A stretch of DNA of 64,000 nucleotides from Trypanosoma brucei (GCA_000002445.1 CP000068.1:1216001-1280000), one strand, 5' to 3'. Shown: positions 20,331 to 26,873, counted from the first letter of the stretch. The notes: a model not told the origin generated them from the letters alone. Made by a program: numbers and translations.

Positions 20331-21764
20331 ATGGCACAGGGCAAAGCTGCTTTTTTACTAATATTGTGTGTTTGCTCCTGCTGGCACCTCTCTTCAGCGG
20401 ACACAGAAGCGATCAAGGAAACAGCAATCAGAGAAGTGTGTGAGCTTTCAAAAACATTGAAAGGCACACCCTTTGCCATAACTCAGAGATGGAAACATAT
20501 CGAGGCCTTGATTTCGACCTTTGAGAGGTTGCTGCGAAGACTGGAGTTAATTAACCTTCTGTGCTGTGAAGACGAAGATAGCGTAAGCATTTTGAAACTC
20601 TACACCCAAAGCCAGATTGCAAGTTTAGAAGTGCTAATGAAGGCTCTTATGGAAAGGGGACCGAACGCCGCGGCGTTCGCGGCATACGCAGCAGGGAGGT
20701 TGGATGAGTTTGTTGCCGTATTCACGCAGTCGGTGGGGAAGACACCGCGAACAAACGCGTGCGTAATTGCGGATTCCGGCATGAGAAGGTGGGACCAGGC
20801 AGCGGCGAATGGATGTGAGCATAACGTAGTGGGAAACGCGGCTCAGAATTTCCTTGATTTGGAAGTCTTATTGAAAACGACATTGTTGACAAGAGGAAAC
20901 CAAAAGGGAGAAAGCAAGCAGTGCCCACTAACAAAGAGCGATTTGAGTGGCTATGCGACGGTGGACGACGCCCCTGACAGAATAAAGTGGGCAGGCGGGC
21001 TTTTGACCGTACACAAAATGTATGGATGGAAAGAAGACGGATGGTCTACAAACGGAAGGAACGTCGAATTCATCAAAGAGGCGGCAGAACAATTCAAAGA
21101 AATTAAAAAAGTCCTCGAGAAACAGCTGCCGAACGGCCTTGACAGCATCGACGCACTAAACGCTTTTTTGAAAAGGGAAGAGCCGGACGCGATGATGAAA
21201 GATGCAATCAAAACGCACCAGGGGTGGGAAGAAGAGAAAGACGATAAAACGATAATTGAGAAAATCAAGGAGATATTTGGAATTGGGGAACCATGTGCAA
21301 AGATTGAATTTATCGAAACGCTTATAAGGACTAATGTTTCTGCTAGAGAATCGGGCTGCACAAAGCAAATTGACTTGTTTCAACTCACTACTCGGCAAAT
21401 GGAAGAAGTAAAGGAACGCCGCCTCGATCAATTACGTAAAACGAAGACAGAAGCGGAGAATTATCCACGGGACATGGCAAAATTGTCGGCATTAAAAACT
21501 AATACAAACACAAAGCAAGGTGAGTACGGAGAGTGCCAGTTTCTATGCAAGCGATACAAGAACGCTAAAGCAGAAAACGAGGCAACGGATGCCGCACCCA
21601 ACTCTCCGGCAGCAGCAAGGAAGTGTCGTGGGAAAACGGAAAACGATTGCAAAGATGAGTGCAAATGGGACGGAAATGTCTGCAAAAATTCGGACGAAAC
21701 ATCAGATTACTCCAGAGTGTGTTACTCCCCTCTTTTTCCAGTCTTACTTCTTTCCTTATTTTAG
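20331..21764 (+). CDS. VSG-related (variant-surface-glycoprotein-like) protein in a chromosome-internal position.
   Basis: N-terminal signal peptide MAQGKAAFLLILCVCSCWHLSSA. A long helical N-domain with scattered Cys. A C-terminal Cys motif CRGKTENDCKDECKWDGNVCKNS typical of VSG type-2 C-terminal domains. It ends in the hydrophobic tail SPLFPVLLLSLF, like a GPI-addition signal. 477 aa. Confidence 0.6.
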   Translation: MAQGKAAFLLILCVCSCWHLSSADTEAIKETAIREVCELSKTLKGTPFAITQRWKHIEALISTFERLLRRLELINLLCCEDEDSVSILKLYTQSQIASLEVLMKALMERGPNAAAFAAYAAGRLDEFVAVFTQSVGKTPRTNACVIADSGMRRWDQAAANGCEHNVVGNAAQNFLDLEVLLKTTLLTRGNQKGESKQCPLTKSDLSGYATVDDAPDRIKWAGGLLTVHKMYGWKEDGWSTNGRNVEFIKEAAEQFKEIKKVLEKQLPNGLDSIDALNAFLKREEPDAMMKDAIKTHQGWEEEKDDKTIIEKIKEIFGIGEPCAKIEFIETLIRTNVSARESGCTKQIDLFQLTTRQMEEVKERRLDQLRKTKTEAENYPRDMAKLSALKTNTNTKQGEYGECQFLCKRYKNAKAENEATDAAPNSPAAARKCRGKTENDCKDECKWDGNVCKNSDETSDYSRVCYSPLFPVLLLSLF

Positions 21765-23170
21765 TTTTTTCAGTGAACATCTTACATAAACTTTGGTAGA
21801 AAATCTTAAGCACCTGTTTTGAATAACAACACTTCGGCAGCCTGTGTCGGTTGCTTGTCTTAAAAAGACATTCTTCTGCTTCATTGTACCCCTTTGTTTT
21901 AATACACAAGAATCAAAGAGATTGTTATGAAGGCAAAACGAGAAAAAAAAATGTCGCAAAGGCAAGAAATGCCGGGAATTTAAGAAGACATCCTCCCCGC
22001 CAAAGTTTTTTTTGGCCCAACGAACCGTACGAACTTGTATAGACTGGTGTAGACGAACCGTACCTGATCGAAACGAAAGTGTTTTTAAGCGTGAAGAAAT
22101 GCGATGAAGGACAAATGCGAAAATTCGAGGCAGGGACTTTAGGGAATGCCCAAACACTGTTGAGGATATTTTTAAAAAAAACCTCAGAATAAATCACCAT
22201 CTCGACGCGGTTTCAGAGCCCAATATGTAGGAACGACGGGGAAGGGAACCGAGGACCCGCAGCTAACTCCGCCAGGATTGGGTTACGAAAATAACCACGC
22301 GTGGGGCGTCAACAACAACAGCACACAAAAAAAAAACGCCGTTGCTAACCTGCAAAGCATCGAGGAAAATAATGACCTTTTTCCCTCGGTCTTTTCAGCA
22401 TGATGGCCTTCTCAGCGCAGTGGTGACACAACCTCAGCGGACATTTCCTCACCTTCCTTTGAGTTTATCTAAACTCTTCCCGTATACATCATTTTCTACA
22501 GGCGCAGCTCCTGTGGATAATTCATTCAATATTAAGGTTAATTCCTCCAAAGGGTATGCAAAATGGGTTGGCAGCTCCTCGCTATTGGTAATTCCATCTC
22601 CGAAACTTCGGACGTTTTTGTCCGCCACCTTTTCATATATTTCCACAATCACATTCATAAGTGCTGTTTTGTTGTTTGTTTTTTTGAAGCTCATTCTTCC
22701 ACCCAACACCGCACCCCCCTCCAAACGTCCCGCAATTCTTATCAGCAAAAAACAAAAAAACATTGCTTCATCCCTTTCCTACCTTATGACTCATTTTAAC
22801 AAAAGGAAAACGTTCAGGGAGTGTGAAAGCATAAACAATGACTAAACACGCGGGATTGCCTCAATAACGCATCGCGGAATACAATCACACATTACAGAAA
22901 AGAAATATAACCAATTTTATCACCAGTGCATTTCCCTGCACTTCCCCCCCCCCCTCTCCCTCAAAAAGGAACAAACAAGACGAAGGAAACACAACACACG
23001 AGGGGTTTATATTACATTTATTTATTTTTGGTTCATGCGTATGAAACCATATCCGTATGACACGTTTTTGCGCAGTGCATTGCACTTACTTTTTACACCA
23101 AGTGGATAAAAAGATAAACAAAACAAAAGGAAAAAAGGAAAAGAAACAATGGGAAAACACAATCAAGAAT
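21765..23170. other. Convergent strand-switch region between the + and - polycistronic units; putative RNA polymerase II termination zone.
   Basis: Every supported gene to the left is on + and every gene to the right is on -. The gap of about 1.4 kb has no convincing ORF. It contains a C11 run at 22944-22954 and a short direct repeat (cgaaccgtac twice, around 22021-22065). No tRNA cloverleaf was found by eye. Confidence 0.55.
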
Positions 23171-25322: not shown

Positions 25323-26054
25323 ACGCGTCAATGGTGTTGTTCTTGGGAACAACAAGCTGGAAAGAGGAGAACAGGGGAAAAAAATATGAGGCGTTCCGTA
25401 CGCACATAAAATATGTTAATGAGGGGTAGATAAACATATAGGTAAAACTTATTAACAACAACGTTAAGAACACGTAACAACAAGAAATTAAAAAATCACA
25501 ATGAGAAAAAAAGGAAATAGATATGATCACCAAGAAAAAAAAAAGTTGTGCTAGTTATATTTCTTGTGTGCCTCAGTGTTCCCAAGAATGGGAACATAGA
25601 AACTAAGAAGAGGTTGCAGAGAAGTCGATAAATGCTGTAAAATTACGATAACACTTTAATATATATATATATATATGGAAACCAAAAAAAAAATAGTGGG
25701 AAAACAAGAAAAAAATAAAGAGGGGGACAACGCACAAAAACAAAAATGGTGGCGGCAGTCGTGAAGAGTAAATCCCTTTCTCGATGGCGCAGTAACTGCC
25801 TCTGCACGCGTAAATAAACTGTAAAATACAACAGTGCACTAAAAAGGAAATAATGGGGAAAAGGGCGGGGGAAAGCGTGTGCGCCGCCGAAATATGATCA
25901 ATTTTGGAGTAAAACAAGGAAAAGGGTGAATGGTAATGACGATGGTCAAATGGCAGGGAAATATTCCCATTTGTGGCGACACGCCCACGCTGGTCACATG
26001 AGCAGCAGCAGGATCATCATTAGCTGCGAGCCCCCCCCCCATAATATTTTTTTC

Positions 26055-26873
26055 TTAGAAAGAGAGGGCCGTGGCGGCAAGCATTACGAGAAGGAATTTC
26101 ATTGAAGTACCCACAGCCCCACTCGCTTCATCTTCCTTATCTTCATCGGAGTCGTCATCATCGATTTCAGGGAACTGAGCTGCCTCTTCTTGTGCCTCAC
26201 TCTTGGCATCATCAGCTGCATCGGCAGCCCTAACAGTCTCAGCGGTAGCTTTCTGAAGCTCCTCCAGTTTATTAGCCGCTTCATTCGCCTCCTGGAGGTA
26301 TTCCTCAGCGAAATCTTGCATGTACAGCCCTCTCAGGTTGTGAGCCGCTCTCGTAAGCGCTTCTGGCGTGACGTCGTCAGCAACAGCGGTGGCACATTCT
26401 TTAGCCAACTGCTTAATTGTTTCATTCCCTCCGTGCTCCGCGGCGCCCCTCAGCAAACCACTGAAGACACTTTCATATTCACTCTCAAAGCTGTCAAGCG
26501 CCCGGGCGAAGCGTTTTACTTCCATCGCTGCTGCTTCGGCACGTACAGATGCCTCATACGCCACCGTGGCGGCCTCCCGAGCTCTCTTTGCAGCCTGCTG
26601 CTGTTCCGATGTGCCGCCAACGGCACCCGCCTCCGCACGCTTCGCGGCCTTTTTGCCTTCCTTCGCTGCTTTTTTGCTTTCCTCCAATGCGCCTACAGCC
26701 TCGAACCTCCGCTCTTCCGTCAGTAGCGGAAGTTTACGCAGTTGTTTCGCCACCTCACATAGTGCTTTCGTCTGTTCCAATTCGGCTTCAAGATTATCGT
26801 TCGCGTAGGCGGTCGGTGCGAATATGAAGTGAAGACTGAGGCCGAGCACAAACAAAGCGCGGGAAATCATCAT
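26055..26873 (-). CDS. Ala/Glu-rich, predicted all-helical GPI-anchored surface protein (GARP/BARP/haptoglobin-haemoglobin-receptor-like architecture).
   Basis: Signal peptide MMISRALFVLGLSLHFIFAPTAYA. About 230 residues dominated by A/E/K/L with a heptad-like pattern. An acidic stretch EIDDDDSDEDKEDE is followed by small residues SGAVGTS and a 13-residue hydrophobic tail FLLVMLAATALSF, which looks like a GPI signal. Confidence 0.55.
   Translation of the reverse strand: MMISRALFVLGLSLHFIFAPTAYANDNLEAELEQTKALCEVAKQLRKLPLLTEERRFEAVGALEESKKAAKEGKKAAKRAEAGAVGGTSEQQQAAKRAREAATVAYEASVRAEAAAMEVKRFARALDSFESEYESVFSGLLRGAAEHGGNETIKQLAKECATAVADDVTPEALTRAAHNLRGLYMQDFAEEYLQEANEAANKLEELQKATAETVRAADAADDAKSEAQEEAAQFPEIDDDDSDEDKEDEASGAVGTSMKFLLVMLAATALSF

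Follow-up and report, generated by a model that had tools for sequence, protein, structure and literature searches.

Three surface-protein genes, very probably under separate expression programmes, at a convergent strand switch and synteny breakpoint of Trypanosoma brucei chromosome 5

Here we describe a convergent strand-switch region of T. brucei chromosome 5, between Tb927.5.3980 and Tb927.5.4030, at which three surface genes are found: Tb927.5.3990 (an atypical A-type VSG), Tb927.5.4010 (ESP4) and Tb927.5.4020 (FHR). Very probably, these are unrelated, African-trypanosome-specific genes that have clustered at an old synteny breakpoint and follow each an expression programme of its own, and therefore do not constitute one co-regulated unit. 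The window, i.e., the whole stretch of 64,000 nucleotides that was analysed, comes from T. brucei brucei TREU927 chromosome 5, as exact protein matches to chromosome 5 records attest, and contains the following features:

4130-5497: MFS transporter
12864-13988, plus strand: Tb927.5.3980, mitochondrial ribosomal L15-type protein (Pfam Ribosomal_L27A)
13989-20330, no strand: 6.3 kb stretch without a convincing gene (ORFs of at most 175 aa only)
20331-21764, plus strand: Tb927.5.3990, atypical A-type VSG, 477 aa (XP_845069; VSG-625 in Lister 427)
21765-23170, no strand: convergent strand switch, lying between the VSG stop codon and that of ESP4 (ORF map)
22372-22845, plus strand: Tb927.5.4000, annotated hypothetical ORF, 157 aa (exact match XP_845070)
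23171-24085, minus strand: Tb927.5.4010, ESP4, 304 aa (identity by exact protein match; surface proteome)
23708-24025, minus strand: deep allelic divergence island encoding the Cys-rich head of ESP4 (TREU927 vs T. equiperdum OVI)
26055-26873, minus strand: Tb927.5.4020, FHR, factor H receptor, 272 aa (PDB 6XZ6; Pfam GARP)
27191-27469, minus strand: LSm-domain gene, 92 aa (ORF), the first conserved minus-unit gene inward of FHR and ESP4
27989-30442, minus strand: uS10m, LysM-domain mitoribosomal protein, anchor for cross-species synteny (loci L002-L006)
31631-33787: nicastrin-like type I membrane protein with a signal peptide
49958-51130: ZIP transporter

The ORF map confirms the three genes and the strands proposed for them in an earlier note on this DNA, as well as its placement of the switch between the VSG gene and the minus-strand pair, where plus genes end and minus genes begin. 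That note had also taken the VSG gene for the last of the plus unit, which must be amended since Tb927.5.4000, though doubtful as a protein-coding gene, is annotated downstream, and all remaining genes of the window for intracellular housekeeping genes, which does not hold because MFS, ZIP and nicastrin-like membrane proteins are encoded as well. The interval between the two stop codons carries no repeats within the window, and scans of the whole window for Rfam families and for tRNAs gave none. By home-made rules, with signal peptides called by the (-3,-1) rule and GPI signals by omega, omega+2 and tail, the two elements occur together in 3 of 26 window genes, exclusively Tb927.5.3990, ESP4 and FHR; each of these three proteins has a hydrophobic h-region at its N terminus and a hydrophobic tail at its C terminus. 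The signal peptides and GPI-type tails formerly attributed to the trio are thus recovered in each member, with the qualification that the GPI signal of the VSG is atypical.

Tb927.5.3990 comprises a signal peptide (~residues 1-23), an A-type N-terminal domain (Pfam PF00913, E=7.5e-76, residues 9-362), a weak C-terminal domain (PF10659 at 20.9 bits, just below the 21.4 cut-off; PDB 2JWH C-terminal domain, E=2.3e-4) and a GPI-like tail, and it weakly matches VSG MITat1.2 and the ESAG6/7 chains. The best omega candidate, by the home-made rules only, is D459, followed by 18 residues (canonical VSG signals have 17 or 23) that end in LLLSLF; the final 10-residue hydrophobic run includes a proline. 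The former designation “VSG-related” is correct as to the VSG family but not as to the VR class, the formal annotation being “VSG, atypical, putative”. With the chromosome-internal VSG-related and atypical VSG genes of Marcello and Barry (2007), to the extent that they are cited in Jensen (2009), the gene shares an internal strand-switch position and the lack of upstream 70-bp repeats, whereas its annotation sets it apart from the VR genes. Indeed, it is surrounded by core housekeeping genes and is not subtelomeric or telomeric; the 70-bp core motif is absent from the window, and notable tandem repeats are absent upstream of the gene. Being chromosome-internal and without 70-bp repeats, it is a member of the VSG protein family outside the switchable archive. 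Furthermore, it is also present in T. b. gambiense, Lister 427 and EATRO1125 and is 99.6% identical to its T. equiperdum counterpart (dN/dS ~0.14, from only 6 substitutions), so that it behaves like a fixed single-copy gene rather than like material of the archive. Downstream of it, Tb927.5.4000 closes the annotated plus unit, with one internal TM-like stretch, no signal peptide and no Pfam match; its counterpart in T. equiperdum OVI is frameshifted and not called as a gene. On this sequence evidence its coding status is doubtful, and it may be no real protein-coding gene.

On the opposite strand, ESP4 is the true terminal gene of the minus unit. It consists of a signal peptide (codons 1-18), a Cys-rich head (codons ~21-126) with 8 invariant Cys, an acidic/polar stalk of ~150 residues and a GPI-type signal with a rule-based omega candidate, D277 (D-G-G). 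AlphaFold2 models of 4 alleles reached a mean pLDDT of 39, too poor for a fold search, with the stalk below 35, and residues 125-288 are predicted to be disordered. [quoted passage not shown] No relatives outside Trypanozoon were retrieved from 5.8 and 1.84 billion proteins. A word-indexed search returned only ESP4 itself and its allele cluster, an exhaustive HMMER search with the head added one weak match, a 1759-aa multi-HYR-repeat protein (E=1.7e-4), and Pfam gave nothing at E<=1, the HYR profile not being matched significantly. Homology of the head to HYR domains was rejected, this sole remote match being a probable cysteine-pattern coincidence.

FHR is a GPI-anchored three-helix-bundle receptor for complement factor H (Macleod 2020), and it has been assigned to Fam50 subfamily iii, with a GARP fold (Jackson 2013). 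It matches Pfam GARP PF16731 (E=4.4e-51), PDB 6XZ6 identically over residues 25-251 (E=1.4e-132), and the T. congolense GARP 2Y44 at E=0.0023. The rule-based cleavage after A24 and omega S251 agree with the construct 25-251, as published, and with the crystal structure; the published protein (Macleod 2020; PDB 6XZ6) is the product of the same gene, alike in signal peptide (1-24), omega site and three-helix bundle, and its surface location, knockout phenotype and structure are established (Macleod 2020).

Comparison of gene order across trypanosomatids indicates that the chromosome 5 switch is a synteny breakpoint, which is new in this analysis. Tb927.5.3980 is the final conserved, syntenic gene of the plus unit, with orthologues in T. 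vivax, T. cruzi and Leishmania. On the minus side, Pfam LSM was matched on the T. equiperdum and T. melophagium orthologues of the LSm gene, for which tblastn gave matches in T. vivax and T. rangeli and none in L. donovani. In T. vivax the convergent switch is kept and is occupied by an array of HpHbR-family genes along with retroelement fragments (RVT, RNase H): at one locus (L009) a plus-strand series of ADK, L15, small ORFs and an RVT fragment converges on three HpHbR-family genes, and at another (L002) at least 5 HpHbR-family ORFs come after uS10m, on its own strand. In T. melophagium the LSm gene is followed just by a low-complexity tandem repeat, and the contigs of T. cruzi (two strains) and T. 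rangeli stop ~0.1-0.6 kb from the anchor genes, exactly at the junction. In L. donovani, 2.4 kb separate uS10m from a chromosome end that terminates in TTAGGG, and Leishmania L15 is found on a separate 728 kb chromosome, with ASF1 next to it, 16-26 kb from the end. The karyotype change at the switch would be either a trypanosome fusion or a Leishmania fission.

Outside Trypanozoon, tblastn detected no relatives of the trio, neither at the corresponding switch of T. vivax nor at the other loci compared. The lineage specificity claimed beforehand is thus upheld, ESP4 being confined to Trypanozoon and T. vivax having the same switch with different surface genes. The T. vivax array occupies the same slot, downstream of uS10m/LSm at a unit end converging on the L15 unit, and, like FHR, its members are elongated helical-bundle surface receptors (published structures) with signal peptides; however, it is multi-copy, faces retroelement fragments and shows no kinship with FHR that hhalign (probability 0.2%) or tblastn (negative) could detect, so that sequence gives no ground for claiming positional orthology. 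A breakpoint of this kind would let lineage-specific genes be gained without disrupting a conserved unit, and we infer that the trio clustered here because the old breakpoint tolerates such gains.

VSG genes are typically subtelomeric, and the locus could also be read as a relic chromosome end, where two ancestral chromosomes joined and the VSG- and GARP-family genes were left over from old subtelomeric arrays. The telomere-ended uS10m unit of L. donovani, the location of Leishmania L15 on a different chromosome, and the subtelomeric tandem arrays formed by the T. congolense FHR relatives of Fam50 iii (Jackson 2013) would fit a relic of this sort. We regard it as rather unlikely, however: Leishmania L15 is near a chromosome end but not at it, the window holds neither an interstitial TTAGGG tract nor a 70-bp repeat core, no retroelement remnant was found in the T. 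brucei gap, and ESP4 and the VSG gene are restricted to Trypanozoon, whereas T. vivax already has the convergent switch. Since T. vivax shares it, any fusion would predate the African trypanosomes.

As regards expression, the locus already serves as a model for base J/H3.V/PNUTS-PP1-dependent Pol II termination (Reynolds 2014; Kieft 2020/2024). A base J and H3.V peak lies upstream of Tb927.5.3990/4000 (Reynolds 2014, Figs 5-6; Tb927.5.3980 is gene 1 in Fig. 5), and in nuclear run-on the Pol II signal is gone before these two genes (Reynolds 2014). Loss of J, H3.V, PNUTS, Wdr82, JBP3 or PP1-1 leads to readthrough and derepression of both (Reynolds 2014; Kieft 2020/2024), as seen with DMOG and in J-null parasites (Reynolds 2014), and the log2 fold change of Tb927.5.3990 in PNUTS RNAi is 2.15 (Kieft 2020/2024, supplementary data). 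By position, the 6.3 kb stretch must hold this published termination zone, whose exact site is not locatable from sequence; its placement there is taken from published figures and text. The ten longest ORFs of the stretch gave only noise against Pfam, and it contains no notable tandem repeats, telomere repeats, 70-bp-repeat core, window-internal repeats or retroelement remnant. Only bloodstream forms make base J, which is absent from procyclic forms, and for this reason the authors propose a developmentally regulated expression of Tb927.5.3990/4000; in salivary-gland parasites, Tb927.5.3990 is the only VSG differentially expressed.

Compared with the PTU-internal J/H3.V termination sites (Reynolds 2014/2016; Schulz 2016; Kieft 2020/2024), the plus side is the same locus and presents no difference; the published mechanism concerns Tb927.5.3990/4000, on the strand opposite to ESP4 and FHR. 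In Reynolds (2014), 4010 served merely as a fourth, opposite-strand gene, and 5.4010 and 5.4020 do not appear in the searched portions of the supplementary text of Kieft (2020/2024), which is weak evidence. That FHR and ESP4 have no second terminator ahead of them is likewise taken from published figures and text.

In slender bloodstream forms the ESP4 mRNA reaches a fairly high level (array signal 18891, 2.76-fold over stumpy), and the protein was detected in the bloodstream surface-labelled proteome with 55 spectra, enriched ~3134-fold (Gadelha 2015). FHR, in turn, cannot be detected in slender forms, goes up in stumpy forms and amounts to ~200,000 copies per cell in procyclic forms (Macleod 2020). 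Its transcript is midgut-specific, amounts to only 4 rpkm in bloodstream forms, and drops upon depletion of the RNA-binding proteins ZC3H20/21. Upon CTR9 RNAi in bloodstream forms, reads of Tb927.5.4020, which that study lists among genes near convergent stop sites, 3 kb away, went up 13-fold, an increase that Northern blotting did not bear out.

Applied to the whole trio, the suggestion of the earlier note would mean that the weakly transcribed, chromatin-marked ends of the converging units impose on all three genes a shared transcription that is low or gated by stage. This is true for Tb927.5.3990/4000, as published; the low bloodstream level of FHR, its response to CTR9 RNAi and its proximity to the convergent stop would agree with it, and, J being bloodstream-only, a J-based gate would be stage-specific. 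Yet ESP4, terminal in its unit, shows good expression in slender forms and is plentiful in the surface proteome, its neighbour FHR shows the opposite stage profile and depends on ZC3H20/21 at the mRNA level, the CTR9 effect was not seen by Northern blot, and the J/H3.V-dependent stop was placed on the plus side (Reynolds 2014). For the trio as a whole we therefore consider such gating very unlikely, and the claim fails for ESP4 and FHR. The opposite profiles of these adjacent genes, together with the ZC3H20/21 dependence, point to gene-specific post-transcriptional control, while the CTR9 result leaves some room for transcriptional or positional input on FHR. As for a meaningless adjacency of three hydrophobic-ended ORFs, by coincidence or annotation artefact, the chance of 3 such genes within 4 consecutive switch-straddling genes (~0.003) was computed post hoc and the atypical GPI signal of the VSG was called by home-made rules, but this hardly credible reading is effectively already refuted by published protein data, FHR being experimentally a GPI-anchored surface receptor and ESP4 being detected by surface labelling, and runs against the strong VSG domain match and the tendency, published genome-wide, of lineage-specific surface genes to lie at strand-switch regions (Jackson 2010; Jackson 2013; Jensen 2009).

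In the preferred reading of three separate programmes, Tb927.5.3990 and the doubtful ORF Tb927.5.4000 are near-silent in bloodstream forms through an early Pol II stop inside the 6.3 kb stretch, marked by J and H3.V and enforced by the PNUTS-JBP3-Wdr82-PP1 complex; where the marks are lost, the polymerase reads through into both, as the literature has shown. ESP4 is transcribed and expressed in slender bloodstream forms and gets to the cell surface, as proteomics has shown. FHR comes on in stumpy and procyclic forms, which would happen mainly by mRNA stability via ZC3H20/21, a regulatory step suggested by RNAi; it recruits factor H and so shields the parasite from complement, a function that has been demonstrated.

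The sharply bounded divergence of the ESP4 head is also new in this analysis. Along the 250 bp of 23751-24000, TREU927 and T. equiperdum OVI differ by 41 mismatches, where the rate of the 20 kb background would predict 1.3 (Poisson P ~1e-45). dS is 0.23-0.31 and dN 0.16-0.22 in the head, as against a dS of 0.01-0.03 in the stalk and 0-0.013 in neighbouring genes; hardly any difference between strains is seen in the signal peptide, the stalk, the GPI signal or the DNA on either side. ESP4 had been flagged as fast-evolving at the strand-switch region (Jackson 2010), and published papers give 92.7% overall nucleotide identity with T. b. gambiense. In contrast to that published divergence, the one described here is limited to the ~320 bp head-coding part, and synonymous sites are also raised ~20-fold. 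ESP4 may be a single-locus bloodstream-stage surface protein with its membrane-distal head under balancing or diversifying selection, the source of which could be immune pressure or a polymorphic host ligand. It is conceivable, though we lean somewhat against it, that the head represents ancient recombining allelic lineages and the switch a long-lived, repeatedly refilled surface-receptor slot, older than the divergence of T. vivax.

The initial observation is partly confirmed, and its interpretation is partly supported and, for the plus side, was already published for this exact locus; as written the finding adds nothing, since all three genes had been named and one of them structurally and functionally solved. 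The locus constitutes a clean natural contrast between early termination on one side and mRNA-level control of two adjacent genes on the other, and the opposite profiles of FHR and ESP4 warn against taking position alone as regulation. Tentatively, the island in the ESP4 head would mark an exposed non-VSG bloodstream antigen or receptor apparently under unusual selection, and its divergence is of relevance to those who look for invariant or semi-invariant targets on African trypanosomes.

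Exact-sequence look-ups of the encoded proteins place the window on chromosome 5 of Trypanosoma brucei brucei TREU927. In the ORF map, the plus strand carries the large ORFs between 751 and 21764 and the minus strand carries them between 23171 and 54750, so that the three putative surface protein genes at this site straddle a convergent strand switch.

Annotated genes around the convergent strand switch (coordinates in the window)
20331-21764, plus strand: Tb927.5.3990, VSG gene, ORF of 477 aa
22372-22845, plus strand: Tb927.5.4000, annotated ORF between the VSG gene and the switch, 157 aa
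23171-24085, minus strand: Tb927.5.4010, annotated as hypothetical, named ESP4, ORF of 304 aa
26055-26873, minus strand: Tb927.5.4020, annotated as hypothetical, named FHR (factor H receptor), ORF of 272 aa

The earlier note had placed the ORFs of the VSG gene, ESP4 and FHR exactly, but took the VSG gene to be the last of the plus unit, whereas the annotated Tb927.5.4000 comes after it. The coding status of the latter is doubtful, because it carries a frameshift in T. equiperdum OVI (locus L001, 14018-14489), where no gene is called. It has neither a Pfam match nor a signal peptide, and may be a non-coding readthrough reporter instead of a gene. Any ESP4 3′ UTR longer than ~330 nt would overlap it in antisense. 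Farther along the minus strand, an apparent 7 kb gap in the large ORFs is due to a histone H4 tandem array (54780-61997), in which a 736-bp unit with a 100-aa histone H4 ORF recurs ~9.8 times at ~99.5% identity.

In Kyte-Doolittle profiles, each of the three proteins has a strong h-region at its N terminus and ends in a hydrophobic tail. When a simple rule set was applied to the 26 genes of the window (signal peptides had to show an h-region and obey the (-3,-1) rule; GPI signals had to have small residues at omega and omega+2 and a final decapeptide that is hydrophobic and uncharged), only these three satisfied both parts, in keeping with what had been proposed for them, though the VSG tail is atypical (candidate D459 plus 18 residues). 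For FHR, the rules predict cleavage after A24 and omega at S251, and residues 25-251, the published mature protein, are matched by the crystal structure 6XZ6. ESP4 presents a textbook omega candidate, D277-G-G, followed by a spacer and a 19-residue tail. It was wrong, in turn, to describe every other gene as intracellular housekeeping, since other genes of the window code for membrane proteins: an MFS transporter, a ZIP transporter and a type I membrane protein resembling nicastrin. Regarding families, the VSG gene encodes an A-type VSG N-terminal domain (PF00913, 7.5e-76), with the VSG C-terminal domain below the Pfam threshold, and FHR is a GARP-family protein (PF16731, 4.4e-51). ESP4 has no Pfam match, and only its own alleles were recovered among 5.8 billion proteins; one weak match to a HYR-repeat protein among 1.84 billion cluster representatives was not accepted as homology.

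On the plus side, the idea that position at a unit end gates expression, which the earlier note reached independently, corresponds to a mechanism already demonstrated at this exact site. Indeed, Figs 5 and 6 of Reynolds et al. (2014) are given over to the Tb927.5.3990/Tb927.5.4000 region: the nuclear run-on signal is gone before these genes, and blocking the synthesis of J reversibly increases their transcription. The same site has since been the standard assay for PNUTS, Wdr82, JBP3 and PP1-1 (Kieft et al., 2020, 2024). According to the authors of the termination papers, J-dependent termination inside a unit permits developmentally regulated expression of the downstream genes; in salivary-gland parasites, Tb927.5.3990 has been reported as the sole differentially expressed VSG. 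The gene-free stretch holding the published termination zone also contains, at 17000-17500, a second, smaller peak of divergence, with indels and 4-5% mismatches separating TREU927 from T. equiperdum; it adjoins an (ACACAT)n microsatellite at 16929-16953 and lies near the end of the T. equiperdum contig.

On the minus side, a shared positional effect does not fit the expression data. Complement factor H is bound by FHR, a GPI-anchored three-helix-bundle receptor that cannot be detected in slender forms, is induced at the stumpy stage and reaches ~200,000 copies per procyclic cell; it is located on the surface and required for normal transmission to tsetse (Macleod et al., 2020). T. brucei has this gene in single copy as its member of Fam50 subfamily iii, a group found as subtelomeric arrays in T. 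congolense. ESP4 was picked out as a fast-evolving gene, specific to African trypanosomes, that lies at a strand-switch region and is predicted to carry a signal peptide and a GPI signal (Jackson et al., 2010). It received its name once it had proved ~3100-fold enriched in the bloodstream surface-labelled proteome, but the tagged protein was undetectable (Gadelha et al., 2015); its mRNA, of fairly high signal, is 2.76-fold more abundant in slender than in stumpy forms. Expression of this terminal gene in slender bloodstream forms means that Pol II gets as far as the end of the minus unit, and an effect of position common to both genes cannot produce opposite stage profiles in neighbours. Furthermore, FHR mRNA falls upon ZC3H20/21 depletion, and this dependence on RNA-binding proteins also counts against a positional reading. 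One hint of transcriptional input on FHR remains, a 13-fold rise in reads upon CTR9 RNAi, for which a Northern blot gave no confirmation.

Strand-switch regions have repeatedly been reported to host VSG-related and other lineage-specific surface genes, and the comparison of this switch across species, anchored on uS10m (27989-30442) and the L15-type gene (12864-13988), is new in the present analysis. T. vivax has the same convergent switch. On one scaffold (L009), the plus-strand series of PRMT, ADK and L15, continued by two small ORFs and a fragment of a reverse transcriptase, runs towards an ORF of 162 aa and three HpHbR-family genes; on a second contig, nicastrin, uS10m and LSm are followed on the same strand by at least five HpHbR-family ORFs. 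This HpHbR-family tandem array (L002 7905-16189 and L009 15558-20573; PF20933, up to E=1.7e-94) occupies the slot that FHR and ESP4 hold in T. brucei, while reverse-transcriptase and RNase H fragments lie after L15, on the side opposite to the array. At the T. vivax switch, tblastn detected no match to any of the three T. brucei genes, and FHR shows no profile similarity to the array. In L. donovani (L006 12470-14923, LR812653.1), LSm is missing from the uS10m locus, and only 2.4 kb separate uS10m, the outermost gene, from a chromosome end formed by TTAGGG repeats, so that the switch on T. brucei chromosome 5 coincides with a break in synteny and a telomere of Leishmania; L15 of L. orientalis is found on a different chromosome, of 728 kb, with ASF1 following it. 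Taken together, the comparison identifies the switch as a synteny breakpoint whose content depends on the lineage, which is the simplest reason for the build-up of lineage-specific genes there. That the switch is a fossil subtelomere is only a possibility, because the T. brucei side yielded neither interstitial telomere repeats nor 70-bp repeats nor remnants of retroelements. In the T. cruzi clade, three independent short-read contigs (from T. cruzi CL, T. rangeli and T. cruzi Sylvio) break off within ~0.1-0.6 kb of the anchor genes that flank the junction, which hints at repetitive content at the equivalent site.

A distinct signal lies within ESP4 itself. Aligned with T. equiperdum OVI over 20 kb, the window is 98.6% identical counting gaps, and mismatches amount to ~0.5% outside one island: the segment 23751-24000 contains 41 mismatches in 250 bp (16%) against 1.3 expected (Poisson P ~1e-45). 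The island (23708-24025, minus strand, compared with L001 12786-13691, L007 and L008) is sharply bounded and covers ESP4 codons ~21-126, the Cys-rich head. There, TREU927 differs from the OVI or ERR7929156 alleles with a dS of 0.23-0.31 and a dN of 0.16-0.22, against a dS of 0.01-0.03 in the stalk and 0-0.013 in the neighbouring genes. The four known alleles share all eight cysteines and have kept the signal peptide, stalk and GPI signal. The TREU927 allele is set apart from those of OVI, DAL972 and ERR7929156, and the OVI allele is a mosaic of the other ESP4 types. With synonymous sites as inflated as non-synonymous ones (dN/dS ~0.7), the head does not have the look of a recent burst of positive selection. 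The island looks like either a set of old, balanced alleles that the population has retained, with recombination at each flank, or a conversion tract; no ESP4 paralogue was found among 5.8 billion proteins and 1.84 billion cluster representatives. AlphaFold2 gave no usable model of ESP4 (pLDDT 39) but predicts disorder for residues 125-288, which would agree with a long flexible stalk bearing a small head.

As a whole, the observation of three predicted surface protein genes at the switch is correct, and its interpretation stands for the plus side and does not fit the minus side; as originally written, it was already known in every main respect. The ESP4 island is new as far as the searchable literature shows. 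This island and the slot filled differently across species are the only parts that could, if confirmed, lead to something new, a prospect judged slightly less likely than not.
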